Positions 775 to 60,418 of a stretch of 64,000 nucleotides of DNA are shown here, piece by piece. Position 1 is the first letter of the stretch; every line of letters starts with the position of its first letter. Under the pieces are notes generated by a model. That model was not told where the DNA came from, did no database searches, and saw only the letters and a list, made by a program, of their open reading frames with translations. The stretch covers positions 96,001-160,000 of the forward strand of contig CAVTNR010000008.1 of NCBI GenBank assembly GCA_963736115.1. The letters run 5' to 3'. This DNA is from an uncultured bacterium. GTDB lineage: Bacteria; Zhuqueibacterota; QNDG01; DTFT01. The position numbers and the translations under genes are program-made.

Positions 775-1062
775 TCGGGCGGCCAGAAGCCCAAGCTTCC
801 GGGTGGTGTTATTTAGAATGATCGGAGTGCGGGCTTCTGGCCGCTCCGACGAGTCAAATTCGCCGTCGCTTCCCTTCAATAATTCAATAGGGATATTGAT
901 TGGTCCCGTGAAGCCTTCAATAAAATTAATCCGTTGATTGGTCCCGCAACGCGGGACGGGGCGGCGGCGATAATCCAAATTTCTTGTGAACCCCCACCGT
1001 CCGGCAAAGCCGGACCAAGCAGCCAGATGCGATTGTATTGAAGGCTTGCGGTGGGGTCACCT
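774..1062 (+). mobile_element. Palindromic MITE-like repeat family B, divergent copy, carrying 3 micro-element insertions
   Basis: ATCGGGCGGCCAGAAGCC...GGGCTTCTGGCCGCTCCGA hairpin plus ATCCAA.TTTCTTGTGA, shared with 4247-4542 and 30272-30521. Confidence 0.75.
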
Positions 1063-1079
1063 AACGCCGGAGAACGGTC

Positions 1080-2936
1080 GTGAACACCCAACTCAAGAAA
1101 CTGCTCCGGCAGGCCCGCGAGGACGCGGAGCCCACGGCCCGTCGCGAGGCCATTCTCGCGATCGGGCGCGAACGGGATCCCGCGGCCTTTCGCGCGCTGT
1201 CGGAATTCCTGAAGGACCCCTCGCCGGACATCCAGCGCGCGGCCGTGACCGGTCTCGGCCGGCAGGGAAATGCCGCGGCCGTCCCGCTGCTGGCCGGCCC
1301 GCGCATCATGCGTTCGGCCTCGACGGACGTGCGCTGGGCGGCTGTGTCCGCCCTGGGCCGCATCGGCGGACTGGACGCCGTGGAGCCCCTGGTACGAGCC
1401 GGCCGGGACGAGGAGTGGGTCGTCCGGAACCAGGCTGTCAACGACCTTCGCCGCATCCTCGCGGAAGCGGCCGCGGTCCCGGACACCCGGACCCTGAGCC
1501 TGCTCACCGTCCTGCTGGACGCCGACCGGCCCGAGATCGCCGAAATCGTTCTGGACGCGGTCGAAGCCGCGGGCGGCCGGATGCTGGATCCCATTCTCCG
1601 CGCGCTTCCGCATCACCGGTCCTCGCCGGTCTGGCGCGCCAACGCGGCGGCCGCGCTCGGTCGCATCGGAAATCCCGTCGCGGTGCCGTTTCTCGTCCGC
1701 CTGCTCGGGGACACGGACGGCCGCGTTCGGCGGAACGCGGTCGAGGCGCTCGGGCGGACCGGGGACGGCCGCGCGGCGGGCGCCGTGCTGGCGGCCCTGG
1801 AGGACATTCAGAGCGAGGTGCAGCGCGAGGCCGTCTGGGCCCTGACCCGCTTCGGCAGCCGCGGCACCGATCCCATTCATCATGCGCTCCGGCACAGTCG
1901 CAACAAGTACGTCCTGCGCGCCATGATCGCGACGCTCGGCGAAATCGGGGACGTCCGGTCCATTCCGGAAATCGTACCCTGCCTCGGCAGCACGTATTTC
2001 GTCGTGCGCGCCGCGGCCGTCAAGGCGCTGGTGAAATTCGGGGAGAAGGCCATACCGGGCCTCGTGTCCGTGCTCTCGTTCAACGGTTCGGACGTCAGAC
2101 CGCTGTTGGCCGACGCCGCGAAGGCGCTGAACCGAAGGTCCGGACGGTGCCTCCCGCCGGAATGCCGCAGGGCGGTACGCGCCCTGGCCGCGCTCGAGGA
2201 CCACCGCGCGGTCGCACTGATGAAGCGGATCGCGGCGGAGTGCGGTCCGGAGATCGCGGAAGAGGCTGAACAGGCACTGTTCCGGATCGGCACGGCCGCC
2301 TGGCAGAGGTGCTCGGCGCTCGTCTGCCTCAGGGAAATCGGGCCCCCGGCGGCGCTGAAACACGTCATCCGTTCGCTCGAAGACCCCTCCGCCAACGTCC
2401 GTCTCGAAGCGGTCCGCGCCCTGGGCCGCCTGCCGGGCGCCGGACGCGCCGTCAGGCTGTTGGCCGTTGCCGTGGCCGATCCGGATCCCTATCTCCGCGC
2501 CGAGGCGCTCGAGGTGCTGCGGCAGACCGGAGAAACCGGGCCGGACATGGCCGCATCCGCCATCCGCTGTCTCGGGGACACGGATCCGGACGTGCGCGCC
2601 GAAGCCGCGGGACTCCTGGGGAATCTCCGCGACAAGCGGGCCATTTTTCCGCTGCTCCGCCTGACAGGAGACCGGCATTGGAACGTTCAGGAGAGCGCTG
2701 AGAACGCGCTCCATAATTTCGGGAGGGAAGGGCTTCCGGCGCTTCGCCGGGGTCTGAATGACCGTTCGGCCCGGGTCCGTTTCCGTTCCTGCCGGCTGGC
2801 GGGCGAAGTCGCGGACAGGCGGTTTCTGCCCCTTCTCGACCGCATGGCGAAGCGGAAGGACGGGGACGCGGGGGCCGCGAAAGCCGCGGCCGGGGCAGCC
2901 GCCCGGATACGCGAACGCGCGGCGTCCGCAAAATGA
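1080..2936 (+). CDS. HEAT-repeat (PBS lyase-like) protein
   Basis: Many repeats of L.D....VR..A..ALG.IG over 618 aa. Confidence 0.9.
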   Translation: MNTQLKKLLRQAREDAEPTARREAILAIGRERDPAAFRALSEFLKDPSPDIQRAAVTGLGRQGNAAAVPLLAGPRIMRSASTDVRWAAVSALGRIGGLDAVEPLVRAGRDEEWVVRNQAVNDLRRILAEAAAVPDTRTLSLLTVLLDADRPEIAEIVLDAVEAAGGRMLDPILRALPHHRSSPVWRANAAAALGRIGNPVAVPFLVRLLGDTDGRVRRNAVEALGRTGDGRAAGAVLAALEDIQSEVQREAVWALTRFGSRGTDPIHHALRHSRNKYVLRAMIATLGEIGDVRSIPEIVPCLGSTYFVVRAAAVKALVKFGEKAIPGLVSVLSFNGSDVRPLLADAAKALNRRSGRCLPPECRRAVRALAALEDHRAVALMKRIAAECGPEIAEEAEQALFRIGTAAWQRCSALVCLREIGPPAALKHVIRSLEDPSANVRLEAVRALGRLPGAGRAVRLLAVAVADPDPYLRAEALEVLRQTGETGPDMAASAIRCLGDTDPDVRAEAAGLLGNLRDKRAIFPLLRLTGDRHWNVQESAENALHNFGREGLPALRRGLNDRSARVRFRSCRLAGEVADRRFLPLLDRMAKRKDGDAGAAKAAAGAAARIRERAASAK

Positions 2937-2994
2937 GAGCCATCGATTCGAATGCATGCGTTTTCGATTATCATTTAAAGTGAAGGAGAAGAAG

Positions 2995-4131
2995 ATGAAC
3001 CGAATCATGAGAACCCTGCTGTTGTGCGGCCTGGTTGCGACGGTGTTCGTGGTCCAGGGATGCGGACAAAAGGCAAAGCCGGGCGTGGTGCAATCGGCAT
3101 TCGGCGTGATGCCCGACGGCCGGGCCGTGGATCTGTTCACGCTGACGAACGGGAGCGGCATGGAGGCGAAGATCACGAATTACGGCTGCATCGTCACCCA
3201 TCTGACCGTACCGGACCGGAACGGAAAGCCCGGGGACGTGGTTCTGGGTTACGACAGCCTGTCCTCCTACCTGGCGGTGAATCCGTATTTCGGATGCGTC
3301 GCCGGGCGCTACGCCAACCGCATCGCGAAGGCGCAATTCAAACTCGACGGCAGGACGGTCCGGGTCACGCGCAATGACGGGCCCAACCACCTGCACGGCG
3401 GAAAGACCGGGTTCGACAAGGTGCTCTGGACCGCGGAACCCTCCGATTCGTCCGCGGCGCTGAAGCTGACGGTCACGGCCGCCGACGGGGAGGAAGGGTA
3501 TCCCGGGAACCTGACCGCGGTTGTGACCTACACCCTGACCGACGACAACGCGCTCCGCATCGATTACGAGGCCGTGACGGATAAACCGACCGTGGTCAAC
3601 CTGACCCAGCATTCCTATTTCAATCTGTCCGCCGATCCTTCGACGGACGCGCTGGATCACACGCTTCTCATACTGGCGGACCGGTTCACGCCCGTGGACC
3701 GGACCCTCATTCCGACCGGCGAACTCAAGTCCGTGGACGGCACGCCCTTTGATTTCCGCACACCGGTCGCGGTCGGGGCACGCATCGGCGCGGAAGACGA
3801 ACAGCTCAGGCGGGGCCTGGGATACGACCACAACTGGGTGCTGAACGGCTGGGACGGGTCGCTTCAGACCGTCGCTGAACTCGCCGATTCGGTTTCCGGA
3901 CGGACGATGGAAGTGCTGACCACGGAGCCCGGAATCCAGTTTTATTCCGGCAATTTCCTGGACGGGACGATTACGGGCAAGGGCGGTGTCGTGTACAACC
4001 GCAGGTCCGGGCTCTGCCTGGAAACCCAGCATTATCCGGATTCGCCGAACAAGCCGAAATTCCCTTCCACGGTGCTCCGGCCCGGGGAAACGTACAAGTC
4101 GACCACGGTGTATCGGTTTTCGGCGAAATAG
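2995..4131 (+). CDS. galM: Aldose 1-epimerase (galactose mutarotase) with lipoprotein signal
   Basis: Motifs GRYANRIA, HLHGG, NLTQHSYFNL, GYDHNW, CLETQHYPDSPN. RBS AAGGAG. N-terminal VVQGC lipobox. Confidence 0.93.
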   Translation: MNRIMRTLLLCGLVATVFVVQGCGQKAKPGVVQSAFGVMPDGRAVDLFTLTNGSGMEAKITNYGCIVTHLTVPDRNGKPGDVVLGYDSLSSYLAVNPYFGCVAGRYANRIAKAQFKLDGRTVRVTRNDGPNHLHGGKTGFDKVLWTAEPSDSSAALKLTVTAADGEEGYPGNLTAVVTYTLTDDNALRIDYEAVTDKPTVVNLTQHSYFNLSADPSTDALDHTLLILADRFTPVDRTLIPTGELKSVDGTPFDFRTPVAVGARIGAEDEQLRRGLGYDHNWVLNGWDGSLQTVAELADSVSGRTMEVLTTEPGIQFYSGNFLDGTITGKGGVVYNRRSGLCLETQHYPDSPNKPKFPSTVLRPGETYKSTTVYRFSAK

Positions 4132-4145
4132 GATAAACAGCTGAG

Positions 4146-4246
4146 GGTTTCAATCGGGGTTCGGTAAAGCCGGATACGGAATTCACCCTTCAGGGTTTCA
4201 TCCTGGAAAACCTCCCGCGGTGGATTGAGAAACCGCGGGAGGTTCC
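4146..4246 (-). repeat. Repeat family C (GAACCTCCC hairpin + ATGAAACCCTGAA.GGTGAA)
   Basis: Reverse complement matches 34780-34873. The hairpin alone recurs at about 21051-21085. Confidence 0.6.
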
Positions 4247-4542
4247 ATCGGGCGGCCAGAAGCCTGTTCATTCTGGTTCCAATTTTACTGGATGATCGGA
4301 GATTGGGCTTCTGGCCGCTCCGACGGGTCTGATTCTCCGGCCCCGCGATGCGGGATCAAGCTACAGATGCCGGCTATTGAAGACTTCGCCGGACCAAGCA
4401 ATGAGATTGATTCATTAATGAAGGCCCGCCGCTTGCCTTCAATATGATAAAAAATTATAATAGCTTGGTCCCGCGCAACGGGACGGCGTCCATCATCCAA
4501 GTTTCTTGTGATACCCCGCTGCTTGCGGCGGGGTCTTTCATT
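4247..4542 (+). mobile_element. Palindromic MITE-like repeat family B with 3 micro-element insertions
   Basis: Near-identical backbone to 30272-30521. Ends in a GC hairpin plus TTCAT, like IS200/IS605 right ends. Confidence 0.8.
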
Positions 4543-4687
4543 GTGAAAAGCCGGAGAAACAGAAGGCATCCCCGTCAGGCCGGGGCAAGGGGGGATGCGT
4601 TTCGAGAATGAAACCGCGTTTGCTCCGGACAGCCGGAATGCGCCGGTTCAGCAGAAAGTGTCATTACCTATCCGAAGGGAGTCCGTC

Positions 4688-5602
4688 ATGAACCGTGACC
4701 CGAAGACGGGTTTTCAGCGGGTCAGAGGGTTGTTTTCATGGGCCAGGCAGTCCGTTTTCCGCCTCATCCCCCGGCCGGTCAAGAACATCCTGAAGGGCTT
4801 TTTGCTCCGGCTGGCCGATGCAGGCCAGCGGCGGCGGCGGCGCGTTCTATTCGGTGAAAAGGCCCGTTTCGTCGCGCCTCTCTGGATCATCAACGACGGC
4901 CCGCGCGATTACGGTATATTCCGGCGGAATGGGGATGAGTTTTTCAATATTTTCACCGGGCAATGCGGGTTGAAAAATACGGACCGGATATTCGACATCG
5001 GATGCGGCGCTGGCCGGAAAACCATCCCCCTTCTTGATTTCGTGGATCCAGGCTCCGGCGGGTACGACGGACTCGACGTATACCAGCCCCATGTCGACTG
5101 GTGCAGGAAAACCATGCAGGCCGAGTATCCCCATTTCCGTTTTCATTTCAAGGATATCTGGAGCAAGCTGTACAATCCAACCGGCAGGCTGAAAGCGGCA
5201 GAGGTCCGGTTCCCCTTTTCGGACGCGTCGTTCGATTTTATCATCATGGGATCGGTGTTCACCCACCTGTTCATGGACGACACCGCCCATTACATTTCCG
5301 AGATCGGACGGGTCACGCGGCGCGGGGCCAGGGGGATGGTTTCATTTTTTCTGCTGAATCCCGAATCCGAGAAACTGATCGGGGAAGGGCGGTCCGAGGT
5401 GAACCTGGTCCATGATGACGGATCCGGATGCAAAGCGGACAATGCCGAGCGGTATGAGAGCGCGGTCGGGCACGACGAACGGAAGATCCGGACACTGTTC
5501 GCCGCCCAGGGGTTTGACGCGCGCCCGTTTTACGGGTCCTGGTGCGGCCGGAAGGATTTTCTCAGTTATCAGGACGTGGTCCGGATTGAAAAGGTCCGGT
5601 GA
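4688..5602 (+). CDS. Class I SAM-dependent methyltransferase
   Basis: Motifs IFDIGCGAG, FPFSDASFDFI, SVFTHL, GSWCGR...SYQD. GGGAG RBS before ATG 4688. Confidence 0.85.
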   Translation: MNRDPKTGFQRVRGLFSWARQSVFRLIPRPVKNILKGFLLRLADAGQRRRRRVLFGEKARFVAPLWIINDGPRDYGIFRRNGDEFFNIFTGQCGLKNTDRIFDIGCGAGRKTIPLLDFVDPGSGGYDGLDVYQPHVDWCRKTMQAEYPHFRFHFKDIWSKLYNPTGRLKAAEVRFPFSDASFDFIIMGSVFTHLFMDDTAHYISEIGRVTRRGARGMVSFFLLNPESEKLIGEGRSEVNLVHDDGSGCKADNAERYESAVGHDERKIRTLFAAQGFDARPFYGSWCGRKDFLSYQDVVRIEKVR

Positions 5603-5710
5603 CATGAAAGGCGACGACTTCATCTTGAAATTCGTCCCTCTGCCGTTCGGCCGCTTCGGAGCCGCCGGGCTGAAGAATGGAACCATTCCATGCCGCATCA
5701 GGAGGATCTC

Positions 5711-7978
5711 ATGAAGAAAACTGTGATCATGACCGCTGCGGCCGTGCTGGCCGCATTCGCATGCGGGTGCGGCCGGAAGGCCCCTGTCCGGATCGATCTC
5801 GTGGACGGGTGGAAATTCAGCGCCGGCGACAGTCTACTCTGGGCTTCTCCCGAATTCGACGATTCCGGGTGGAAGCCGATCCGGCCGGACCGGCTTTGGG
5901 AGGAGCAGGGCTGGACGGGCTATGACGGGTTCGGCTGGTACCGCGTGCGGTTCTTCCTGCCCGGTTCCCTGAAGGCATCGGCGTTTTTCCGGGACAGCGT
6001 GGAGGTCGTCCTGGGCCGGATCGACGATACGGACCAGGCCTTCTTGAACGGCCGCCTCATCGGGCAGAACGCGGCGCTGATGCCGGACGTGCCGCCCGGG
6101 CCGTTCACAGGCAGCCGGCAATCCTATGCCTGGGTCCGCCGGTACGCCCTGGCCGCGGAAGATCCGCGCCTGTTCTGGGACCGGACCAACACGCTGGCCG
6201 TCCGCGTCCACGACCACGGCGGGGGAGGGGGATTGTATTCCGGGATTCCCGCCGTTCGGGTAAGAGCGCTTACCGATTTCGTTCTGATAGACGACAGCGG
6301 GTCGCCTTTTGAACCGACGGAGAAGGGCGGTTTACGGAAGACGGTTTTCCTCAGCAATCTCTCGCCGGACCTGCGGTTCGCCGGGACGATCGATATCCGG
6401 GTCGAGCAGTCCGAACCGCGAAAGGTCCTGTTCCACGGCACGAAGCAGGCGGTTCTCGATCCCCTTGCCGGTTTCTCGCAGAGCTTCGTCTTCGACGCTC
6501 CTTCCGGGACGCCCGCAGCCGTGACCGTGGCTTTCCGGGATGACGCCTCCGGCCAGTCCGTGATCCGCCGGTCCGAAGTGCCGTACATCCTCACGCCGCT
6601 GCCGCCGGATGAACCCCGCATCAACGGCGCGGGGATTTACGGGCAGCGACCCGGACGGCCCTTCCTTTACCGCATCGCGGCGACCGGCCTCAGGCCCATG
6701 ACCTTCGACGCGGACGGGCTCCCGGAAGGATTAACAATAGCCCGGGATTCCGGAATCATCCGCGGCCGGGTTTCGGCTGAAGGCACTCATGTCGTCCGGT
6801 TGCGCGCGAGGAATGCCCTGGGCGAGGCTTCCCGGCCCATCAAAATCGTCATCGGCGACCGCATCCAGCTGACTCCGCCCATGGGATGGAATTCCTGGAA
6901 CTGCTGGGGCCTTGCAGTGGATGATGAGAAGGTCCGCGCAGCGGCCGACCGGTTCATTGACACCGGACTGGCCGACCATGGATGGACTTATGTGAACATC
7001 GACGACGGCTGGGAAAGGGAGGCGCGCCTGCCGGACGGCGGCATCACGGCCAACCGAAAATTCCCCGGCATGAAAAAGACGGCGGATTACGTCCATGACC
7101 AGGGGCTGAAAATCGGCATTTATTCCTCGCCCGGACCGTTGACCTGCGGCGGCTATCTCGGAAGCTGGGGGCACGAGGAACAGGACGCCCGGACCTGGGC
7201 GGCATGGGGGATCGATTACCTGAAATACGACTGGTGCTCCTACGGCACGCTGGCGAAGGACGACGGCCGCGAGGAGCTCATGAAGCCGTACCGGGTGATG
7301 CGCCGCGCCTTGGACCGCCTCGATCGGGACATTGTGTTCAGCCTCTGCCAGTACGGCATGGGAAACGTCTGGGAGTGGGGTGACGAAGTCGGGGGCAATC
7401 TCTGGCGCACGACCGGGGACATCACAGACACGTGGAAGAGTATGTCCGGGATCGGGTTCAGCCAGACCGTTCAGGGGCCGTTCGCCGGATCCGGCAGATG
7501 GAACGATCCGGACATGCTGGTGGTGGGCTGGGTCGGCTGGGGACCTGCCGTCCGCCCGACGGGGCTGACCGCGAGCGAGCAGTACACGCACATCAGCCTG
7601 TGGTGCCTGCTGTCCGCTCCCCTCCTGCTGGGATGCGACCTGACCCGGCTCGACGCGTTCACTCTGAACCTGCTCACCAACGACGAAGTGCTGGCGGTGA
7701 ATCAGGATCCCCTGGGCCGCCAGGCCGGCCGTATTTCGGATTCGGATTCCATCCAGGTTTGGGCCAAGCCGTTGGAGGACGGATCCTTCGCGGTCGGCTT
7801 GTTCAATCTCAGCCTTCGGGATCGCAAGGGTTCGGTTTCGTGGGACCAGTTGTCTGTTCGAGGAACCCAGCGGGTCCGGGATCTCTGGAGACAGAAGGAC
7901 CTCGGGTTGCATGCCAAAGGATTCAAGACGGGAATACCCGGACACGGCGTCGTCCTGATCCGGATTGCGGGCGCGTGA
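5711..7978 (+). CDS. Alpha-galactosidase GH27 lipoprotein with N-terminal jelly-roll and Ig-like domains
   Basis: Motifs TPPMGWNSWN, NIDDGW, DYLKYDWC, WRTTGDI, WNDPDML. RBS GGAGG. Confidence 0.92.
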   Translation: MKKTVIMTAAAVLAAFACGCGRKAPVRIDLVDGWKFSAGDSLLWASPEFDDSGWKPIRPDRLWEEQGWTGYDGFGWYRVRFFLPGSLKASAFFRDSVEVVLGRIDDTDQAFLNGRLIGQNAALMPDVPPGPFTGSRQSYAWVRRYALAAEDPRLFWDRTNTLAVRVHDHGGGGGLYSGIPAVRVRALTDFVLIDDSGSPFEPTEKGGLRKTVFLSNLSPDLRFAGTIDIRVEQSEPRKVLFHGTKQAVLDPLAGFSQSFVFDAPSGTPAAVTVAFRDDASGQSVIRRSEVPYILTPLPPDEPRINGAGIYGQRPGRPFLYRIAATGLRPMTFDADGLPEGLTIARDSGIIRGRVSAEGTHVVRLRARNALGEASRPIKIVIGDRIQLTPPMGWNSWNCWGLAVDDEKVRAAADRFIDTGLADHGWTYVNIDDGWEREARLPDGGITANRKFPGMKKTADYVHDQGLKIGIYSSPGPLTCGGYLGSWGHEEQDARTWAAWGIDYLKYDWCSYGTLAKDDGREELMKPYRVMRRALDRLDRDIVFSLCQYGMGNVWEWGDEVGGNLWRTTGDITDTWKSMSGIGFSQTVQGPFAGSGRWNDPDMLVVGWVGWGPAVRPTGLTASEQYTHISLWCLLSAPLLLGCDLTRLDAFTLNLLTNDEVLAVNQDPLGRQAGRISDSDSIQVWAKPLEDGSFAVGLFNLSLRDRKGSVSWDQLSVRGTQRVRDLWRQKDLGLHAKGFKTGIPGHGVVLIRIAGA

Positions 7979-8136
7979 AAATTCCTTGCAATATTAAAAG
8001 AATGCGGACTTTGAGGCGCGGTAGGCATGTGTTATAATTTCAAGGTCTTACGTGCCGGGACAAGTGTATTGCCGTTGACTGAGGCATGCCATTTGCACGG
8101 ATTACAATACACTAAAATTAAGAAATAATCAGAAGG

Positions 8137-8529: not shown

Positions 8530-8530
8530 T

Positions 8531-11303: not shown

Positions 11304-11317
11304 GGCGGATCCCTCCC

Positions 11318-15046: not shown

Positions 15047-15421
15047 GAACGCGGACCTTCGGCGGATGAGACGGATTTGAACGGATCAGAAATGTGGAAT
15101 AGGATAATTGTTTCAATCAAATGAATGTCATCTTCGCATTATCACAAATGTCATCCCCAGCAAAGCTGGACCAAGCTATTAGATTGATACATCGTTGAAG
15201 GCCCGCATTCTTTTAACGGGGATCCAGGGGACGGGTGCGGGATGGGAAGGAACACGGATCGCGCGGAGGGGCGGATTGGCGCGGATCGAGAATGATCAAT
15301 CGGGTAATGCATTCATTATAATCAATGTCATCCCCGCATTCTTTTAGCGGGGATCCAGGGGAGAGGTGTGGGATGGGAAGGAACGCGGATTGCGCGGATG
15401 GGACGGATTTCTCCGGATCAA
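15047..15421 (+). repeat. Duplicated ~90-bp unit (REP-like GTCATCCCCGC hairpin + CGGAT 9-mer runs); one copy carries a micro-element
   Basis: AATGTCATCCCCGCATTCTTTTA.CGGGGATCCAGGGGA...GGGATGGGAAGGAAC.CGGAT at about 15147 and 15324. Confidence 0.75.
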
Positions 15422-20950: not shown

Positions 20951-21164
20951 TAAGTAATGAAAAACGCTCCGGGAGGTTCCAAACCTACCGGAGCGTGGGA
21001 CCAATTTATCACATTCTCGGAATGTTGAAGGCCCGGAGCGTTCACGCGAAGAACCTCCCGCGGGTTTGCACGAACCCGCGGGAGATACTCCGTCCCGATG
21101 GAACCGGCGGTCATCAAACGCCCGGATTCCGGATTTAACCGCCTTCAGTGAGCGATACGCCCGC

Positions 21165-30187: not shown

Positions 30188-30271
30188 AAAAGCGGCATCC
30201 GGTTTTTCAGGACGTTTTCGAGGGCGGCCCCGTTTCTGGGGCCGCCCTTTGTTTTTCAGCGGGATTTTTCT

Positions 30272-30521
30272 ATCGGGCGGCCAGAAGCCTGGTCATTCTG
30301 GTTCCAGTTTTTCTGTATGATCGGAGATTGGGCTTCTGGCCGCTCCGACGGGTCTGATTCCCCGGCTTCGCCGGACCAAGCAATGAGATTTGCTCATTAT
30401 TGAAGGCCCGCCGCTTGCGGCGTCCATCATCCAAGTTTCTTGCGATACCCCGCTGCTTGTCTTCAATAATTCGTAAATAGAATAGCTTGATCCCGCGAAG
30501 CGGGCGGCGGAGTCCTTCATT
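30272..30521 (+). mobile_element. Palindromic MITE-like repeat family B with 2 micro-element insertions
   Basis: Aligns with 4247-4542. Confidence 0.8.
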
Positions 30522-30569
30522 ATTTCCCCTGTTCACCGCGCGGCATTATTTAAAAGGCCGGAGGATGAC

Positions 30570-50693: not shown

Positions 50694-50706
50694 ATCCACC
50701 CTCCCC

Positions 50707-52065: not shown

Positions 52066-53247
52066 ATGAATCGTAACAACAACGCTTTTTTTCCCGCACC
52101 CGGCGAGGCGGACAACATTCATTTTCTGAATGTGAATGAGGATGACTGCATGCGGTGCGGCAAATGTGAAGGCGTCTGCCCGACGGGCGCCATCGCGCGA
52201 ACCCTGCCGGAGACTCCCTGGTGCGTTCACCACATCCCCAATCCGGCGGCCTGCATCGCCTGCGGTCAGTGCCTGAAGGGGTGTCCCGAATCCGCGATTC
52301 AGGAGACCGTCTCTTTCATGGATGAAATCCGGCGGAAACTCGCGGATCCGGACGTGGTCACCGTGGCCATGCCCGCGCCGTCGATCCGCTACACGCTGGG
52401 GGAGGCGTTCGGGGACGACGCGCCGCGGTACGAGGCGGGCCGGATGTTCGCCGCGCTCCGGAGGCTCGGATTCGACAAGGTCTGGGACGTTGAATTCGGC
52501 GCGGATCTGACGATTCTGGAGGAAAGCGCCGAACTTCTGGGCCGGATTCGGGGCGAGCTGGACCGGCCGCTGCCTCTCCTGACCTCGTGCTGTCCCGGAT
52601 GGGTCCGTTTCGTGGAAACGTACCATCCCACGCTCATCCCCAACCTCTCAACCGCGCGTTCCCCGGCCCAGATGCTCGGCGTGATCGCCAAAACCAGGGG
52701 CGCGTCGCAGATCGGAGTGAGCGCGGACAATCTCTACACGGTCCAGATCATGCCCTGCATCGCCAAGAAATTCGAGGAATTGAGGATCGAAAACGCGAAG
52801 TCCGGATTTCGGGATATTGACGCCACGATCAATACGCGCGAGCTCATCCAGTGGCTCAAGGACTCGGCCGTGGATTTCGACGTCCTGCCGGAAGAGCAGG
52901 CGGATGATCCTTTCCGCGCATCCACCGGCGCGGCGACCATCTTCGGGGCGACCGGCGGCGTCATGGAAGCCGCGCTCCGCCGCGTGACGGAAGAACTGGA
53001 CGGAAGACCGCTGGAAAACGTGGAATTCCGATCCGTCCGGGGTACCGAAGGGGTTCGTGAGGCGGAAATCACGGCGGGCGGACAGACGTTCAAGGTCGCG
53101 GTCGTGAGCGGCGCGATCAACGCCGGTCCGGTCTGCGCGGCCATCAAGGCGGGAACGTCCCCCTACGCGGCGGTCGAAGTGATGGCTTGTCCGGGCGGCT
53201 GTCTCAACGGCGGCGGTCAACCCATTGAAAAAGAATATACAACTTGA
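52066..53247 (+). CDS. hydA: [FeFe]-hydrogenase group A large subunit (2x[4Fe-4S] + H-cluster domain)
   Basis: CMRCGKCEGVCP, CIACGQCLKGCP, TSCCPGW, MPCIAKKFE, EVMACPGGCLNGGGQP. Confidence 0.95.
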   Translation: MNRNNNAFFPAPGEADNIHFLNVNEDDCMRCGKCEGVCPTGAIARTLPETPWCVHHIPNPAACIACGQCLKGCPESAIQETVSFMDEIRRKLADPDVVTVAMPAPSIRYTLGEAFGDDAPRYEAGRMFAALRRLGFDKVWDVEFGADLTILEESAELLGRIRGELDRPLPLLTSCCPGWVRFVETYHPTLIPNLSTARSPAQMLGVIAKTRGASQIGVSADNLYTVQIMPCIAKKFEELRIENAKSGFRDIDATINTRELIQWLKDSAVDFDVLPEEQADDPFRASTGAATIFGATGGVMEAALRRVTEELDGRPLENVEFRSVRGTEGVREAEITAGGQTFKVAVVSGAINAGPVCAAIKAGTSPYAAVEVMACPGGCLNGGGQPIEKEYTT

Positions 53248-53260
53248 TGCGAGGTCTCTG

Positions 53261-53878
53261 ATGAGTGAAGCCATCAATGAAAAACGGACGGTCACCCGCC
53301 GCGATTTTCTCAAGATATCAGGCGTCATTTCCGCGCTGATCGTGACGGGCATCAAGTCCGCCGCGCACGCGGCGCAGAAGGCGGTTGAAAACTTTCTGGC
53401 GCGGATAGAGGCCGCGTACGCGCAGGATGCCGCAATGCCCCTCCGCAAGTCGCAGGACAATCCGCAGCTGCAGAGCCTGTACGCGGACTTCCTCGGCCGG
53501 CCGCTCGGCGGGATGTCCGAAAGCCTTCTGCATACCAGCTACACGGACCGTTCCTCGGCCGTCTCCGTGGCACGGCCGGGGGCCGTCCGTTCCCTGCCCG
53601 AGTCTCCGGTGATCGAGTCGGTCTATCCGAATCCGTTCAACGCATCGGCTGAAATCGAATTCCGCATATCCGCGCCGGGAATGGTATGGCTCGCGGTTTT
53701 CAACGCCGCGGGACAGCGGGTGCGCTCGCTCGCGGAAGAGCGCATGCCGGCGGGAGACCACCGGATCCGGTGGGACGGAAAGGACTCCTACGGCAGGAGC
53801 GCCCCGTCCGGGATATACATCGCCCGGCTTGTATCGGGATCGCGGACGGCCGCGATCCGCATGACGCTGATGAAATGA
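53261..53878 (+). CDS. hydB: [FeFe]-hydrogenase small subunit with Tat signal, fused to a FlgD-Ig/T9SS-type C-terminal domain
   Basis: TRRDFLK; RIEAAYAQD...RKSQDNP...LY..FLGRPLG...LLHTSY; then YPNPFNAS...VFNAAGQRVRSL...WDGKD...SGIY..RL...MTLMK. Confidence 0.9.
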   Translation: MSEAINEKRTVTRRDFLKISGVISALIVTGIKSAAHAAQKAVENFLARIEAAYAQDAAMPLRKSQDNPQLQSLYADFLGRPLGGMSESLLHTSYTDRSSAVSVARPGAVRSLPESPVIESVYPNPFNASAEIEFRISAPGMVWLAVFNAAGQRVRSLAEERMPAGDHRIRWDGKDSYGRSAPSGIYIARLVSGSRTAAIRMTLMK

Positions 53879-53889
53879 TGCCGAATGAT

Positions 53890-54137
53890 GAATCTGACAG
53901 CGAGCGCATTTCCCGGCTTCGCCGGACCAAGCAACCGGATTCTTTCTCATTGAAGGCCCGCGGCTTGTCTTCAACAAGCAGGCATATAATAGCTTGATCC
54001 CGCGCAGCGGGCCGCGGGGTAAGCGAGCGAATATCAGATGTCTCTTCTCTACAGATAGAAGATTCCCCGCCGCTTGCCTTCAAACAGAAGGCATATAATA
54101 GCTTGGTCCCGCGAAGCGGGCGGCGGGGAGCTTCAAT
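53890..54137 (+). mobile_element. Repeat family A with 3 micro-element insertions
   Basis: Matches 34660-34777 once 53912-53956, 53968-54011 and 54077-54120 are removed. Confidence 0.82.
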
Positions 54138-54222
54138 GGCGGAAGGCGGAAGAAAGCCGGATGATCCTCGCCCGTATGCTTTGAACCTTGAACTTTGAAC
54201 TATTACTGGAGGGAGGGCTTCC

Positions 54223-54669
54223 ATGGACTTCGACTCTTTTATGTCCCGTTATTTCTGGATCGTCCTTCCCGTTTTCTGGGTTCTCATGTGCCGGCTGGTC
54301 GCCCGGATAAGCGGATGGAATGCCCTGGCCGAATCCTACGCGGCCCAGTCCGACGCCACTGGAACGATTCTCCGGTTCCAGAGCGGTTCCTTCCGCTGGA
54401 GCGCCAATTACAGCGGGCTGCTGAATGTCGGAGCGGACAGCAGCGGACTGCACCTGTCCGTGATCATGTTTTTCAAGCCCGGGCATGCGCCGCTGTCCAT
54501 CCCGTGGAGCGACATTCGGGCCGAACCGCATGGCGTGTTCACGCCGGCGGTGCGCCTGACCTTCAGCCGCAATCCGAAATGTCCGCTTTTCATTTCCGGA
54601 AATCTGGCGCAGAGGATCGCAACGATGAGCGGGGGAGGGTTTACGGTGCCGGCGCAAAAGAGTTCATAG
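54223..54669 (+). CDS. Membrane-anchored hypothetical protein
   Basis: GGAGG RBS, N-terminal TM, SGWNALAESY, GHAPLSIPWSDI. Confidence 0.72.
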   Translation: MDFDSFMSRYFWIVLPVFWVLMCRLVARISGWNALAESYAAQSDATGTILRFQSGSFRWSANYSGLLNVGADSSGLHLSVIMFFKPGHAPLSIPWSDIRAEPHGVFTPAVRLTFSRNPKCPLFISGNLAQRIATMSGGGFTVPAQKSS

Positions 54670-54783
54670 TTGATAGTTCATGGTTCATAGTTAGAAAAAC
54701 GTGAAATGTAGCTCTGTTTTTCACTATGAACCATGAACTATCAACTATGAACTGTTTTTTTGTTAACCATGAACTATGAACTT
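54661..54783. repeat. Inverted heptamer arrays
   Basis: AGTTCAT x4 followed by ATGAACT x6 or more. Confidence 0.78.
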
Positions 54784-54793
54784 TTTTTGATAT

Positions 54794-54830
54794 AAAAAAG
54801 CCCCGCCGGTACCGAAACAGGCGGGGCTTT
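54794..54830 (-). terminator. Intrinsic terminator downstream of ligA
   Basis: AAAAAAGCCCCGCC...GGCGGGGCTTT. Confidence 0.7.
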
Positions 54831-54964
54831 CATCCCAGAGAAGGAGGAGGGAACGTTCAATGCCGGAGATTTCGCAATCCATCCGAAATCACCATTAAGA
54901 TACGAATGACGCCCCTCCGCGGTGTTGTTTTTCTGTCATTTTTTGTATTCAATCGTCACGCAGC

Positions 54965-57013
54965 CTACAGGCTGATTTTCAGTTGTCCGCCGGCCTGCGG
55001 TTTTCTCCGTTTCGCCTTTTCCAGCCGTCCGACGAAGGTGTCCTCGTCCATGATCGGGATGCCGAGGTCGAGCGCCTTCCGGTATTTGGATCCGGGCTCC
55101 GCGCCCGCGAGCACGAAGTCGGTGTTCCGGCTGACCGATCCCGTGACCACGCCGCCTTCCGCCTCGATGCGCCGCGCCGCTTCCTCTCGCGTGAAGCCCT
55201 GGAGCGTTCCGGTCAGCACGAAAATACGGCCTTGAAAAACGCCGCCTTCGGACGGCTTTTTCCGTTCCTGCTCCGTCCGGACGCCCGCGGTTTTCAGCTT
55301 TTCCAGAACCTTCCGGTTGCCCTTCCGTGAAAAGAACTGCGCGACGCTGTCCGCGATGACCGGGCCGACGCCCTCCACAGCGGCCAGTTCCTCGGGCGAC
55401 GCGGCCGCGATCGCGTCGATGGAGCCGAAACGGTCCGCGAGCAGGGACGCGACGTTTTCACCCACGTGCCGGATGCCCAGGCTGAACAGCACCCGGTCGA
55501 GCGGCCGCTGTTTTGATTTTTCGACCGCGGCCGTGAGGTTGGCCGCGCTTTTCTCGCCCATGCGGTCGAGCGACGCGAGCTTTTCACGCTTCATCGCATA
55601 GAGGTCGCCGAAATCCGAGACCAGACGGTTTTCGAGGAGCAGGCGGACCACCGCGTCTCCGAGCCCGTCGATGTCCATGGCGCCGCGCGAGGCAAAATGC
55701 GTGATCCGGCGGAGCACCTGGGCGGGGCAGGCGACGTTTTCGCACCGCACCGCGACCTCGTCCTCGGTCCGTGAAACCGGCGAGCCGCAGACCGGGCAGT
55801 CCGCCGGCATTTCGAAGGGCCGAGAGTCTTTGTGCCTTTTCGCGAGCACGACGGACGCGATCTTGGGGATAACGTCGCCGCCCTTTTCGATCAGAACGGT
55901 GTCGCCTTCGCGTATGTCCTTGCGCCGGATTTCCTCCTCGTTGTGCAGTGTGGCGCGGCTGATCGTGGACCCCGCGAGGAAAACGGGAGCGAGTTCGGCC
56001 ACGGGCGTGATCGCGCCGGTCCGGCCGACCTGAAAGTAGATTTTTTTCAGCACGGTCGCGGCCTGGCGCGCCTTGAACTTGTAGGCGACGGCCCAGCGCG
56101 GGCTTTTGGCCGTCACGCCCAGCCGCTCCTGCTGGCCGATGGCGTTGACCTTGACGACCACGCCGTCGATCTCGAAGGGGAGGCTGTCGCGCCGCTCCTC
56201 CCAGCCGCCGCAGAACTCGACCACTTCCCACATGGATTTGCACAGGGCCGAGTGGCGGCTGACCGGAATCCCCAGCTCGCGCAGAATGTGCAGGCGGTCC
56301 AGCTGGGTGCCGGCCGGGACGTCCGCGATCAGCGCGTACGCGGTGAACTGGAGCGGCCGCCGGGCCACCGCCTTCGGATCCTGCAGTTTCAGCGTGCCGC
56401 CCGCGGCGTTGCGGGGATTGGCGAAAAGCTTCTCGTCCAGTTTCTCCTGGTCCCGGTTCATTTTCTCGAATCCGGCCTTGGGGATGTACACCTCGCCCCG
56501 CGCCTCGACGTCCGCCGGCAGTCCGGGATCCGCGAACAACCGGAGCGGGATGGAGCGCACGGTCTTCAGGTTTTCCGTGATGTCGTCTCCGCGTTCGCCG
56601 TCCCCCCGGGTCGCGCCGCGGACGAACCGGCCGGCCTCGTAGACCAGGCTGACCGCGATGCCGTCGAATTTGAGCTCGGCCACGTACTCGACGGGCTCGT
56701 CCGGAAGCGCGTTCCGGATCCGCTTTTCGAACTCCATCAGCTCGTCGGTGGAATACGTGTTCGAGAGGCTCAGCATCGGCGCCGCGTGCGTCACCGCAGG
56801 GAATTCCTTCGTCGGCGCGCCCCCGACACGGCGGGTGGGCGAGTCCGGGGTGACGAGGTCCGGCCGGGCCGCCTCCAGGTCCGAGAGCCGGGCCAGGAGC
56901 CGGTCGTATTCCCGGTCCTGAATCTCCGGATCGTTCAGCACGTAATAGCGGTGATCGTGCCTGCGGATCTCCTCGCGGAGGGATTCGATCTCTTTTTCCA
57001 TGTCGGAAGGCAT
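54965..57013 (-). CDS. ligA: NAD-dependent DNA ligase
   Basis: ELKFDG, ATRGDG, RNAAGG, QVGRTG, zinc finger, BRCT. Confidence 0.97.
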   Translation of the reverse strand: MPSDMEKEIESLREEIRRHDHRYYVLNDPEIQDREYDRLLARLSDLEAARPDLVTPDSPTRRVGGAPTKEFPAVTHAAPMLSLSNTYSTDELMEFEKRIRNALPDEPVEYVAELKFDGIAVSLVYEAGRFVRGATRGDGERGDDITENLKTVRSIPLRLFADPGLPADVEARGEVYIPKAGFEKMNRDQEKLDEKLFANPRNAAGGTLKLQDPKAVARRPLQFTAYALIADVPAGTQLDRLHILRELGIPVSRHSALCKSMWEVVEFCGGWEERRDSLPFEIDGVVVKVNAIGQQERLGVTAKSPRWAVAYKFKARQAATVLKKIYFQVGRTGAITPVAELAPVFLAGSTISRATLHNEEEIRRKDIREGDTVLIEKGGDVIPKIASVVLAKRHKDSRPFEMPADCPVCGSPVSRTEDEVAVRCENVACPAQVLRRITHFASRGAMDIDGLGDAVVRLLLENRLVSDFGDLYAMKREKLASLDRMGEKSAANLTAAVEKSKQRPLDRVLFSLGIRHVGENVASLLADRFGSIDAIAAASPEELAAVEGVGPVIADSVAQFFSRKGNRKVLEKLKTAGVRTEQERKKPSEGGVFQGRIFVLTGTLQGFTREEAARRIEAEGGVVTGSVSRNTDFVLAGAEPGSKYRKALDLGIPIMDEDTFVGRLEKAKRRKPQAGGQLKISL

Positions 57014-57203
57014 GGGGGCTCCTGCATGCGGGGTGGGCGGTGACCCCATAAACTATCACAAAATTTATTCTTAGTCAACAAAATATTTCTTGTTTTCGCG
57101 CGTTTTAAGTAGTATCTTACTGCCCGCGTTTTTGGGCGACGGACCCAAAAGCGGTTTTTTATGCCTTGTGCCAAACAGGAAAGGTGAATAAAAACAACCC
57201 ACT

Positions 57204-59282
57204 ATGTTTACCGACCTCCAGAAACTGCGAAACATCGGGATCAGCGCGCACATCGATTCGGGCAAAACCACGCTCACTGAGCGCATCCTGTTCTACACCA
57301 AGAAAATCCACGCCATCCACGAGGTCCACGACAAGGAGTCCGGCGCCACCATGGATTCCATGGACCTGGAACGCGAGCGCGGCATCACCATATCCTCCGC
57401 CTCCACGAACGTGGAATGGAAGAAATACTCGATCAACATCATCGACACGCCCGGCCACGTGGACTTCACCATCGAGGTCGAGCGGTCGCTCCGCGTCCTC
57501 GACGGCGCCATTCTCGTTCTGTGCGCCATCGGCGGGGTGCAGTCGCAGTCCCTGACCGTGGACCGCCAGATGAAGCGCTACAAGGTGCCGCGCATCGCTT
57601 TCATCAACAAGTGCGACCGCATGGGCGCTGACCCCGACCGCGTCGTCAACCAAATGAAGGACAAGCTGGGCGACAACGCGGTGCTGATGCAGATTCCCAT
57701 CGGCCTCGAGTCGGCCTTTGAGGGCGTCATCGACCTGATCCGCATGAAAGCGCACTATTTCGACGGGGCGAACGGCGAAATAGTGAGGGAGGAGGAAATC
57801 CCCGCCGCCCTGGTGGAGAAGGCGAAAGCCAAGCGCGACGTGATGCTCGACACAGTGTCGCTGTTCAGCGACCGCCTCATGGAGGCGTACCTCGAGGACC
57901 GGGTCGAAGAGGACATGATCCACGAGGCCGTCCGGAAGGGGACGCTCTCGCTCGGCCTCACCCCGGTGTATGTCGGGTCCGCGTTCAAGAACAAGGGCGT
58001 TCAGCTCCTGCTCGACGCGGTGCTGGCCTATCTGCCCGGCCCCGCGGACGTGAAGAACACGGCCCTGGACCTGGACCACGAAGAGGCGCCGGTCGAGCTG
58101 AAGTCCGATGTCGAGGCGCCGCTGGTCATGATCGCGTTCAAGCTCGACGACACCCGGTACGGCCAGCTCACCTACGTCCGGATCTATCAGGGGCACGTCC
58201 AGAAGGGCGACGAGATCACGAATTCCAGGACGGGTAAAAGCGTCCGCGTCGGCCGCCTCATCCGGATGCACGCAGACGAGATGGAGGATATCACGGAGGC
58301 GGGCGTCGGGGACATCGTGGCCCTGTTCGGCGTGGATTGCGCGTCGGGCGATACGTTCACCGGCGGCGGCGTCCGGTACGCCATGACCTCGATGTTCGTG
58401 CCGAACCCCGTCATTTCGCTTTCGCTCAAGCCGAAGGACAACAAGTCGCTCGAGGGCATGGCGAAGGCGCTCAACCGGTTCACGAAGGAGGACCCGACCT
58501 TCCAGACCTACGTGGACCCGGAGAGCAACGACACGATCATCCGCGGGATGGGGGAGCTCCACCTCGACATCTACATCGAGCGGATGCGGCGCGAGTACAA
58601 GGTCGAACTCGAGACCGGCGCGCCCCAGGTGGCCTACCGCGAGAGCATCTCGCGGAGCGCCGATTTCGACTACACGCACAAGAAGCAGACGGGCGGCTCC
58701 GGACAGTTCGGCCGGGTCTGCGGCCGCATGGATCCCTTCCACGAGGGAGAATTCGAATTCGCGGACGAGATCAAGGGCGGCTCGATTCCCCTGGAATTCA
58801 TCCCCTCCTGCCGGAAGGGATTCGAGGCCTGCCTCGCCAAGGGGTCGATCATCGGGTTCCCCATCGTGGGCGTGAAAGTCACCCTCAACGACGGGAATTC
58901 GCATGCGGTCGATTCGTCCGACGTAGCGTTCCAGCAGGCGGCCATCGGCGCCTTCCGCCAGGCCTACGGCAAGTGCAAGCCCGTCATCCTCGAGCCGATC
59001 ATGAAGGTCGTCGTGGAGTGCCCCTCCGAGTACCAGGGCACGGCCCTCGGCACCATCAACCAGCGGCGGGGCATCATCCACAGCGCGACGGAGGACAAGA
59101 ACTTTACCGTCATCGAGTCCGAAGTGCCGCTGGCCGAGATGTTCGGCTATTCCACCGTCCTGCGGTCCGCGACCCAGGGCAAGGCCGAATTCACGATGGA
59201 ATTCTCCCAGTACAAGAAAGTGCCGGAATCCATATCCGAGGAACTGATCAAGAAATACGCTGACAAGGCCAAAGGCCGCTAA
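57204..59282 (+). CDS. fusA: Elongation factor G (stand-alone, spdEFG1-like)
   Basis: [39 protein letters not shown]. Confidence 0.96.
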
Positions 59283-59319
59283 CCCCGGTCCACGGACCGT
59301 CATCCGAAAGGCTTTACGA

Positions 59320-60030
59320 ATGGTAAAAAAAGAACTGAACCAGAGAAGCCCCATCCGTGTCCTCGAGAAGTCGATTCACGGGGGACTGGGTCGGGGCAAC
59401 CTCGGAGTATTTGCATCCAAGAAGGGTGTGGGGAAGACCGCCTGCCTGGCGCATGTCGCGCTCGACTGCCTGCTCCGCGGGGAAAAGGTCCTGCACGTGT
59501 CCTTTTCGGACAACCCCAGTCACATCGAGAGCTGGTACGAGCACGTCTTCCAGGAGATGGCGGCGACCTTCCGGCTCGAGGACGTGAGGGACGTGCACGA
59601 CGAAATCGTTTCCAACCGGCTGATCGTTCATTTCCGGCAGGCCGACCGCACGTTGCAGCAGGTCCGCTCGCACATGGACACGGTCACCGCGGGCTCCGGC
59701 TTCACGCCCGCCGTCATCATCGTTGACGGATTTTCGTTCACGGCCGCGAACGACGCGGACTGGGCGATATGGAAGGAAATCGCGGCCGAACGTAAAGTCG
59801 AGATCTGGTTTTCCGCCTCCCTGCCCCCGGGCGAAATCGTCACGGACGATTCCGGCATTCCGGCGCCGGTGGCCGCGGGCAAGCGCTTTTTTTCGGTGAT
59901 CATTCAGCTCCAACCGATGCAGGACCACATCGATCTGAAACTGCTCAAGGACCGCGACAGCGTCGATCTCGAGAAACTCCGCCTCAAGCTCGATCCGAGG
60001 ACACTCCTGATCGCGAATCACCGCGCGTAA
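59320..60030 (+). CDS. RecA/KaiC-like P-loop ATPase domain protein
   Basis: GGLGRGNLGVFASKKGVGKT and IIVDG. Confidence 0.8.
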   Translation: MVKKELNQRSPIRVLEKSIHGGLGRGNLGVFASKKGVGKTACLAHVALDCLLRGEKVLHVSFSDNPSHIESWYEHVFQEMAATFRLEDVRDVHDEIVSNRLIVHFRQADRTLQQVRSHMDTVTAGSGFTPAVIIVDGFSFTAANDADWAIWKEIAAERKVEIWFSASLPPGEIVTDDSGIPAPVAAGKRFFSVIIQLQPMQDHIDLKLLKDRDSVDLEKLRLKLDPRTLLIANHRA

Positions 60031-60123
60031 CCGGCCGTAAAAGCCGCCGGCGCGTGACCGGCCGCCCAGTGTCCGTTGTTCCCCGGCCCTGAGCCGTGCC
60101 GCCTGCCCGGCTGTTCCCGGAAT

Positions 60124-60163
60124 AAAAAAAGCCGCCCCCTGGTTGGGGCGGCTTTCGTTTTTT
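60124..60163. terminator. Bidirectional intrinsic terminator
   Basis: A7-GCCGCCCC-loop-GGGGCGGC-TTTCGTTTTTT. Confidence 0.75.
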
Positions 60164-60261
60164 CAGATGACGGCCGGAGCTTCGGGTCCTTGGAACTTCG
60201 GGTGCCTGGAATACGGGAACCCGTGAACGCGGGATCGGCGGATTTTTCCCGAGCGGCGGCC

Positions 60262-60418
60262 GAATCTGTCAGCGAGCGTATACCCCGGAGCTTGCCTTAG
60301 CAGGCATCTGTAGATTGGTCCCGCGCAGCGGGACGGGCTCCGGGGTATGCGAGCGAATATAAATTGTCTTTTCTCTACAGATAGAAGATTCCCCGCCGCT
60401 TGCGGCGGGGAGCTTCAA

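Follow-up and report, generated by a model that had tools for sequence, protein, structure and literature searches.

A 43-47-nt element of an uncultured bacterium that inserts precisely, without target duplication and with a bias for hairpins, and its possible movement by an HUH-Y1 enzyme

A 64,000-nt stretch of the draft genome of an uncultured bacterium of the phylum Zhuqueibacterota (GenBank assembly GCA_963736115.1, contig CAVTNR010000008.1, positions 96,001 to 160,000; hereafter the window) carries 14 copies of a repeat of about 45 nt, which had first been picked out by a reading of the sequence alone. Here we find that this element is mobile, leaves no target duplication, is biased towards hairpins and is non-autonomous, and that its first base covaries with a base just upstream of its terminal hairpin in the manner of a guide. 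Considering its anatomy, this guide-like covariation and the presence of genes for REP (repetitive extragenic palindrome)-associated tyrosine transposases (RAYTs) in the same genome, the mechanism that fits best is movement by an HUH-Y1 enzyme, to which we give an even chance. The source genome, referred to as G000 (3.34 Mb, 60% G+C, 31 contigs, 87% estimated completeness; the window is G000:C8:96001-160000), was compared with related metagenome-assembled genomes (MAGs), among them G001, G002 and G003 of the same genus.

Anatomy and copy number

Copies were located with a strict pattern, CTTCA[AT]-N14-26-TTGRT followed by a perfect hairpin, and with a profile built on 138 clean copies and run over G000 with nhmmer (E<=0.01). 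The pattern matched G000 150 times, against 3, 7 and 5 times in three Markov-shuffled genomes, while the profile matched 179 times; copies are spread over 27 of the 31 contigs. All 14 window copies, whose ends lay within 1-2 bases of those originally proposed, are among the profile matches, those at 20987-21031 and 60295-60337 as weak or partial ones (Table 1).

The unit is 43-47 nt long. It opens with YCTTCAA(T), continues with about 12 variable AT-rich bases and then reads (A)ATAGCTTG-R-T, a conserved tag (AATAGCTTGRT) that ends in TTGGT or TTGAT and leads directly into a 5-bp stem with a 3-base loop. This hairpin is mostly CCCGC-GNA-GCGGG and is followed by 0-1 purine, with TTGRT at offset 0 from a CCCGC-NNN-GCGGG stem in 142 of 150 copies. 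The covariation of the stem that had been noticed in the window holds genome-wide, where CCCGC/GCGGG has the compensated variants CCGGC/GCCGG, GCCGC/GCGGC and CCAGC/GCTGG. Both ends are fixed by unambiguous nested copies, as where the host hairpin GGTCCGGCGAAG^CCGG is interrupted by TCTTCAA...GCGGGA (^ marks a junction or insertion point throughout), which makes Y the first base, and either the stem G or one extra A or G the last. The two ends, YCTTCAA and GCGGG, are not inverted repeats of each other, and the 3' hairpin is the sole constant one, the 5' part folding no better than shuffles in most copies (z<-2 in 16/138). A 5' hairpin (CCTTC..GAAGG, which includes the first base) was seen only in the CAGAAGG subfamily, YCTTC-AAMCA-GAAGR (window 54077-54091 and relatives); other subfamilies have different internal palindromes, or none.

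The expectation that the element belongs to no catalogued family agrees with a search of the window against Rfam, which gave no match at the gathering score and one chance-level match (E 0.33) near 53838. The IMG/VR contigs searched gave no match either. A full-text literature search with four 10-mers of the element returned, among the matches listed, primers and unrelated sequence only, the supplementary repeat lists of Di Nocera 2013 and Corneloup 2021 (Figure S1) lying outside its coverage.

Precise insertion and turnover between species

Filled and empty versions of the same site occur within the window. For CCGCCGCTTG^CGGCGGGG, the empty version lies at 60402/60403 and the filled one at 54077-54120; for GTCATC^CCCGCATTC, they lie at 15332/15333 and 15156-15201, respectively. 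These pairs had been proposed from the window, together with those of copies 4436 and 30460, each of which has its empty counterpart in the other copy of a composite host repeat, family B; all of them proved exact, and, as also claimed, target duplication is absent at every filled/empty pair read. When the unit was deleted in silico, a junction-spanning paralog was found for 116 of the 150 copies, many of these gapless and at 95-100% identity. Hairpins of the form S6-CTTG-S6 in G000 comprise 39 without the element and 33 that carry it exactly behind CTTG. In three genomes from a different family of the order, the host site is an unrelated, AT-rich one between two hairpins, TTCTTTTG^GTWCTTTTCTT, with 20 empty and 24 filled instances. 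Two copies that differ by a single base lie in unrelated flanks.

Four loci were compared between species of the genus, whose flanking genes share ~84-90% DNA identity. At locus 775-1062, G000 and G002 have family B, ~290 nt long, and G001 and G003 lack it. The first family-B hairpin of G000 holds a nested pair and the second a reverse copy; the first hairpin of G002 carries two copies, a reverse one at the foot and a different, forward one in the loop, and the second hairpin of G002 is empty. At locus 15150-15340, two successive G000 units differ in that one has an element at GTCATC^CCCGC and the other has none; the G001 site holds a different copy, and in G002 the site is free of the element. 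At locus 4245-4545 the whole family-B copy is missing in G002 along with its three elements. The degenerate copy at 20987 is found at the orthologous site in G001 too, and is therefore old. These comparisons support the view that the element has moved since the species of the genus split. Two runs of public reads held 6% of the sampled words each, a thin and patchy cover in which no copy's joint was covered.

Landing sites

The base preceding the element (position -1) is G in 128 of the 150 copies; the remainder have A (6), C (10) or T (6). This extends genome-wide the preference for G that had been noted in the window, where a single copy departs from it (Table 1). The 138 clean sites fall into 31 flank classes, of which the three largest hold 57, 25 and 15 sites, and -1 is G in 24 of the 31 class representatives as read by eye from the list. 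Of the target bases only this G is general, since those further upstream vary (CTTG, GAAG, CAAG, GCAG, CGGG).

Hairpins were scored by a strict test, which asks for a perfect stem of >=5 bp with the junction in the loop or within a base of the foot. This was passed by 16 of the 31 independent flank classes versus 576 of 4000 (14%) random ORF-free sites after G (ORF, open reading frame). A looser folding measure separates the two less well (24/31 classes versus 64% of random sites). The sequence-only reading had the element inserting only into palindromic repeats. The bias towards hairpins and the nesting of copies in one another bear out the preference, but the exclusiveness was stated too strongly, as 79 of 138 sites, and 13-14% of random ones, pass the strict test.

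Two kinds of site recur. In the first, the element follows the last loop base, directly before the 3' arm (CTTG^, GAAG^, CAAG^, GCAG^), and in the second it lies at the 3' foot of a hairpin ending in ...CGGG^, which is similar to its own end. Some hosts are unique terminator-like hairpins. The element's own loop, in nested copies, and its own 3' end also serve as targets, and head-to-tail arrays occur. An array of four units was seen in one host loop of G003 (L056:851-1040), with two units identical, the third carrying an internal deletion and the fourth degenerate; it could reflect repeated insertion at the 3' end of the previous unit, or a rolling-circle-like product. Complementarity of the variable middle of the element to its target, judged by eye, was inconsistent.

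ORFs of >=150 aa cover 91% of the genome, yet only 56 of the 179 copies lie under one. Among the window ORFs of >=60 aa that overlap copies, the four copy-spanning ones queried have no Pfam family, while five of six neighbouring ORFs have one. The window copies are intergenic, and the claim that no copy lies in a gene is consistent with these results, though unproven genome-wide.

Covariation of the first base with a guide-like position

The first base of the element, Y, covaries with the R that stands two bases before the stem. Across 138 copies the combination is C/G in 89, T/A in 44 and another in 5 (Fisher p 7e-30); over G000 and related MAG loci there are 133 C/G, 90 T/A and 9 other cases, 223 of 232 being complementary. 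Both compensated states are found on letter-for-letter identical internal sequence in three cases, and in 5 of 112 sequence clusters, and the Y/R change has therefore happened several times. The -1 base is a purine facing the invariant T of GRT in 134 of 150 copies. Since Y1 covaries with R, the second base C and the G are invariant, and the -1 purine faces T, GRT and the left junction R^YC are reverse complements of each other. In mixed (hetero-)tandems the downstream Y mismatches the R of its upstream neighbour, which places the pairing within one element. The same pairs would also extend the stem across joined ends, as GRT-CCCGC...GCGGG-(A)-YC, an 8-bp stem.

Mobility by an HUH-Y1 enzyme had been suggested from the window on the basis of hairpins and missing target duplications. 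This idea gains support at the sequence level from the covariation of the first base with the guide-position base, in keeping with the guide rule published for REP transposases (see below); it gains none from the search for a cognate enzyme or from strand bias relative to GC skew, as set out in the next section. In the pathway that we propose, an HUH-Y1 enzyme supplied in trans would cut the top strand on the left at R^Y and on the right after the hairpin (plus 0-1 purine). The G-R-T 5' of the hairpin would act as the guide, with T facing the -1 purine, R pairing with the first base Y and G with the second base C, and the same three pairs would lengthen the hairpin across the abutted ends in an excised circle. 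The element would then rejoin 3' of an exposed G in single-stranded folded DNA, this G being either the last loop base before a 3' arm or part of a ...CGGG 3' foot that resembles the element's end. Such a pathway would produce no duplication and would make exact excision possible. The single-strand chemistry, the enzyme class and the circle are what we infer here.

The element may accordingly be described as non-autonomous and REP-like, a single-strand DNA element that an HUH-Y1 enzyme of the RAYT or IS200/IS605 kind moves in trans, a description that we think could equally well prove right or wrong. More tentatively, it might be a minimal self-guided single-strand transposon, consisting of one hairpin and a three-base guide that pairs with the element's own first bases, its ends meeting in a continuous stem; such an element would exploit a host HUH (or other) enzyme and home 3' of an exposed G in any folded hairpin, its own included.

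Evidence against an HUH-Y1 mechanism and the search for an enzyme

A number of results, concerning the chemistry, the enzyme and the origin of the copies, weigh against the HUH-Y1 pathway. With regard to the chemistry, T/A-type copies, too, have C as the host base 3' of the right junction, so the guide rule leaves the right cut and the 3' side of the target unexplained; the -1 contact would be a G.T wobble; and the tag TTGRT is neither GTAG nor CGTC. Orientation is even with respect to GC skew, the G-rich strand bearing 83 copies and the C-rich one 81 (50-kb windows centred on the copy, skew in a draft genome being a proxy). The S6-CTTG-S6 hairpins bear 33 insertions at CTTG^ versus 2 at CAAG^ on the other strand, a strand asymmetry that a bare G rule fails to explain.

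With regard to the enzyme, a cognate gene was not found in G000, which is 87% complete and may have one that is unassembled. Three G000 genes lie above the NCBIfam cut-off for a REP-associated tyrosine transposase (90, 88 and 134 bits versus 80), and a second RAYT model picks up the same three (Table 1). Each is flanked by its own GTAG- or GAGT-tagged REPs (78, 58-73 and 11 motif matches genome-wide), and the element is absent from the stretch read at these genes and at 8 RAYT-like loci of G001, G002 and G026. The RAYT type of contig C19 alone is shared by the whole genus, its orthologs in the four genomes being 70-77% identical. The element-bearing genomes of the other family hold nothing closer than 36%, which is odd for so conserved a substrate. 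Among 31 genomes searched with three queries, RAYT distribution did not separate those that bear the element from those that are free of it. The element was also seen inserted inside copies of the REP families GGTAGCCGCAGCC.. and GTAGGTCCGAAATGCC...

A Y1_Tnp or IS110 gene flanked by the motif, which the sequence-only reading had suggested looking for, did not turn up, as the RAYTs have REPs of their own and the IS110 flanks are unrelated. Genes between inverted copies of the element include none that is transposase-like by eye, and no gene is flanked by it. Of 143 right-end-like sites, three lack a nearby left end, and all three are degenerate short copies; a right-end-only pattern gave no sign of extra orphan ends in 5 relatives, where matches were not cross-checked singly. 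A tnpA-bearing parent with the element's ends was not found. With neither orphan ends nor an enclosed gene, the element is non-autonomous, as had been proposed. G000 gave no match for Y2/IS91 and nothing over the cut-off for TnpB. Paralog clusters of ORFs <=2 kb from copies have at most 23 and 12 members; these two largest clusters consist of long multi-domain proteins, and one of them holds a histidine kinase of the window.

The absence of strand bias, together with RAYTs that are neither linked to nor co-distributed with the element, leaves room for a mobile element moved by a different enzyme, whether a structure-specific tyrosine recombinase of the integron-integrase kind or an unrecognised order-wide protein. 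The Y1-R pairing would then merely rebuild the hairpin over joined ends. In integrons, attC sites with RYYYAAC/GTTRRRY cores, 57-141 nt long, stand in arrays beside intI and recombine as folded single strands, and joined cassette ends rebuild the hairpin; the 8-bp stem of the joined element ends, GRT-CCCGC / GCGGG-A-YC, is formally like a circle that rebuilds attC. An integron integrase match lies over the cut-off in G000 (345 bits versus 265), and two element copies, in a composite host repeat just past the match, stand ~270-420 bases beyond its 3' end. However, this gene is split in two frames with a stop inside the match, and integron integrases over the cut-off occur in 22 of 61 relatives, many of them element-free, with none found in the element-bearing G003, G023 and G026. 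No obvious cassette array was seen upstream of the G000 gene. The element itself, 45 nt in length, has no attC cores and is scattered, forming no array beside intI; its joint is G^Y and not G^TT. The integron integrase was therefore rejected as the mover. So was IS110, of which G000 has a single gene with unrelated ends, since 31 diverse flank classes misfit a sequence-programmed target; this gene sits in an AT-rich stretch beside a small-ORF region. We consider a mover outside the HUH-Y1 class unlikely.

Host repeats and the origin of the copies

Three of the repeats that carry copies in the window can be described more closely (Table 1). Family B is a composite in which a long inverted pair, GGCCAGAAGCC / GGCTTCTGGCC, is accompanied by two CTTG hairpins, and the genome has 25 occurrences of one of its 20-base motifs. 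Orthologous sites may have or lack family B itself, which occupies the interval from a stop codon or terminator hairpin to the ribosome-binding site of the next gene and has no match in Rfam. The commonest host of the element is a ~110-nt composite built of two CTTG-looped GC hairpins, along with AGCGAGCG arms and a TCTACAGATAGAAGA spacer, with ~40 motif matches in the genome. The third is a tandem pair of ~175-nt units, in which a hairpin CCCCGC..GCGGGG is followed by GGATCCAGGGGA and CGGAT-rich repeats; the number of these units varies among species of the genus.

With such hosts, jumps of the element itself might be rare, most of the ~180 copies having arisen through multiplication of the host repeats (the ~110-nt composite, family B, REPs) or through gene conversion spreading the filled state. 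That the 138 sites make up only 31 flank classes, and that family B itself comes and goes at orthologous loci, is in line with this. So is the distribution of near-identical copies, as 92 of the 93 pairs with <=2 differences share a flank class. Of the three largest classes, two show a correlation of element distance with flank distance (r 0.53 and 0.44; 0/500 permutations), and the 33:2 asymmetry fits one orientation inherited within the host. These results suggest that many copies may have spread with the host repeat, and they belong with the points that count against the HUH-Y1 pathway. The largest flank class, in contrast, shows no such correlation (r 0.08; reached by 74/500 permutations). 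The same host position bears different subfamilies and both Y/R types, filled sites differ among orthologous and paralogous host copies, and 31 contexts together with a second host in another family still require many separate insertions. Hitch-hiking on host repeats, or a strong preference of subfamilies for particular sites, probably accounts for much of the copy number, whereas rarity of the element's own jumps as the main explanation seems doubtful to us. This explanation is complementary to the HUH-Y1 mechanism and does not replace it.

Dense intergenic repeat mosaics of uncultured bacteria can arise by the nesting of one tiny element in the hairpins of others, and such mosaics matter for the annotation and assembly of these genomes.

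Distribution among genomes

Relatives were scanned too, as had been recommended on first sight of the repeat, and the strict pattern is present in 9 of 61. The four genomes of the genus have 101, 64, 53 and 46 matches, the sister genus has one, and two other families of the order have 4, 4, 15 and 1. None was found in 30 genomes from other orders of the phylum, and the same pattern read backwards, used as a control, gave 0 in every genome scanned. A scan of 185,579 species genomes returned, among the matches listed, almost only the same MAGs, plus at least one further MAG with a true copy; three single matches, again among those listed, are possibly due to chance.

Both ends of the element are conserved across families of one order, and some copies are old and vertically inherited, as might also be expected of a module kept by selection for its function, for instance a promoter-like or protein-binding site with a stabilising hairpin, placed into intergenic hairpins by recombination and not by transposition. 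Many copies carry TATAAT, the left junction creates TTGYCT, and the opposite strand of the T/A type has ATCAAGCTATTA, which comes near the IHF core. Yet TTGYCT and TATAAT are spaced by 14-15 nt, many subfamilies have no TATAAT, the IHF-like core is broken in the C/G type, and no Rfam family matches. Since a binding site would leave the exact single-base boundaries, the self-nesting, the head-to-tail arrays and the Y1-R covariation unexplained, we regard a functional module as very unlikely.

Table 1. Copies of the element, empty targets, host repeats and candidate enzyme genes. Positions are those of the window unless a contig is given.
Feature	Position	Strand	Remarks
Outer copy	874..961	+	Parts 874-914 and 958-961, split by nested copy; loop of first family-B hairpin; 5' flank base C, the lone window exception to G
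Inner copy	915..957	+	Nested at GAAG^ in hairpin loop of outer copy 874..961; ends GCGGG+A
Copy	1000..1044	-	Loop of second family-B hairpin, CCCCACCGCAAG^ on own strand; orthologous G002 hairpin empty
Outer copy	4337..4424	-	Parts 4337-4340 and 4384-4424, split by nested copy
Inner copy, short-type	4341..4383	-	Nested at GAAG^ of hairpin of outer copy 4337..4424
Copy	4436..4483	+	At CCGCCGCTTG^; same site empty in family-B copy at ~30420
Copy, CCAGC/GCTGG stem	15156..15201	-	3' foot of hairpin CCCCGC..GCGGG^G (own strand); paralogous unit empty at 15332/15333; different copy at same kind of site in G001
Degenerate copy	20987..21031	-	Adjoins terminator-like hairpin; between GNAT gene and Rce1-like gene
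Copy, CCGGC/GCCGG stem	30361..30406	-	Foot of first hairpin, third family-B copy
Copy, T/A-type	30460..30504	+	At CTGCTTG^, second hairpin of third family-B copy; site empty in copy at ~4530
Copy	53912..53956	-	Foot of first hairpin of ~110-nt composite host repeat
Copy, T/A-type	53968..54011	+	At CGCGGCTTG^, loop of the composite-host hairpin whose foot holds 53912..53956
Copy, C/G-type	54077..54120	+	At CCGCCGCTTG^; subfamily with 5' hairpin CCTTC..GAAGG
Degenerate copy	60295..60337	+	5' motif damaged, 3' half intact; first hairpin loop of second composite host
Empty target hairpin	60391..60410	+	CCCCGCCG-CTTG-CGGCGGGG; insertion point 60402/60403
Empty target	15327..15341	+	GTCATC^CCCGCATTC; insertion point 15332/15333
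Family B, ~290-nt host repeat	~775-1062, 4245-4545, 30270-30530
~110-nt composite host repeat	53890-54140, 60270-60420
Tandem ~175-nt units	15100-15420
RAYT gene	G000 C2:71373-71915 (L002)		Own REP family GGTAGCCGCAGCC..
RAYT gene	G000 C19:57396-57902 (L003)		Own REP family GTAGGTCCGAAATGCC..
RAYT gene	G000 C17:75009-75746 (L001)		Own REP family GGGAGTGCCGCG...
IS110 gene	G000 C14:88161-88577 (L004)		Unrelated ends
Integron integrase match	G000 C12:324986-325908 (L114 ~1500-2423)	-	Split in two frames

Comparison with known systems

The element most closely resembles REPs and REPINs (paired REPs) with their RAYTs. As in those systems, a short extragenic palindrome directly follows a conserved tag and is present in high copy, vertical persistence is combined with turnover, and single-copy RAYT genes are found in the same genome. 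In the account given in PMC8266576, REP transposases cut between C and T, with C pairing to G4 and T to A3 of GTAG; the tetranucleotide 5' of the palindrome picks the cut by complementarity, and guide mutants shift the cut predictably in one system. The sequence of the element fits the same geometry, its +1 base being complementary to the third base of TGRT and its -1 base facing the fourth. It differs in its tag, TTGRT, and in having a ~30-nt AT-rich 5' arm with a conserved end of its own, YCTTCAAT; it flanks no RAYT gene and moves as a single hairpin, whereas in work on REPINs doublets were seen to excise and no singlets. REPs inside small palindromes have been noted before (T. roseum GTAG-23; PMC3733652). 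The same account (PMC8266576) reports cleavage and joining by TnpA-REP in vitro and describes the pathway of REP dissemination as still unknown. Against this background, the boundaries of the present element are known to the base from dozens of natural filled and empty sites, which REP systems lack, and it adds turnover between sister species and compensatory change tying the first base to the guide position. The family thereby makes the guide model simply testable.

With IS200/IS605 elements, as exemplified by IS608, the element shares the lack of target duplication, an exact donor joint, a fixed base 3' of which it inserts and, as predicted here, a guide 5' of the hairpin foot and a single-strand circle with abutted ends. 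IS608 is described as selecting its cut sites by means of four bases 5' of the foot of either hairpin, to which they pair, as excising to give a single-strand circle and an exact donor joint, and as inserting 3' of its target without gain or loss. In contrast, the element has one constant hairpin and not two subterminal ones, fixes one target base and not four or five, and has paired bases that span the cut and lie partly inside the element. No tnpA-bearing parent with its ends was found, and no TnpB over the cut-off in G000; nor does the element share the replication-strand bias of IS608-type insertion, which is on the lagging-strand template.

A resemblance of another kind is to the small dispersed repeats (SDRs) of heterocystous cyanobacteria, which, as described in 2008 by Elhai et al., are reportedly tiny (21-27 nt), lie within other repeats and within themselves, and have a conserved fold. 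We know of no enzyme for them, nor, to our knowledge, has a REP-like module of tag plus hairpin or a guide covariation been reported. SDR5 is reported to insert exactly inside HIP1. SDRs and the element are both very small and lie precisely inside other repeats and inside themselves; the element belongs to a different phylum and is 43-47 nt long, the comparison being one of descriptions. With integron attC sites the element shares complementary ends of a mobile unit, which in the element would likewise rebuild a hairpin when joined, and it is unlike them in having no cores, in being far shorter, gene-free and dispersed, and in a distribution apart from that of intI. Unlike a classical miniature inverted-repeat transposable element, it has neither terminal inverted repeats nor target duplication, and unlike an element mobilised by IS110/IS1111 it has no ends in common with IS110 and occupies 31 flank classes, not one target.

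We class it as a REP-like element whose tag is new, which has a 5' arm and whose insertion follows a defined rule. If it is indeed a self-guided transposon, it would provide the first natural base-resolution record of single REP-like units inserting and excising, and TTGRT would constitute a distinct tag class beside GTAG and CGTC.

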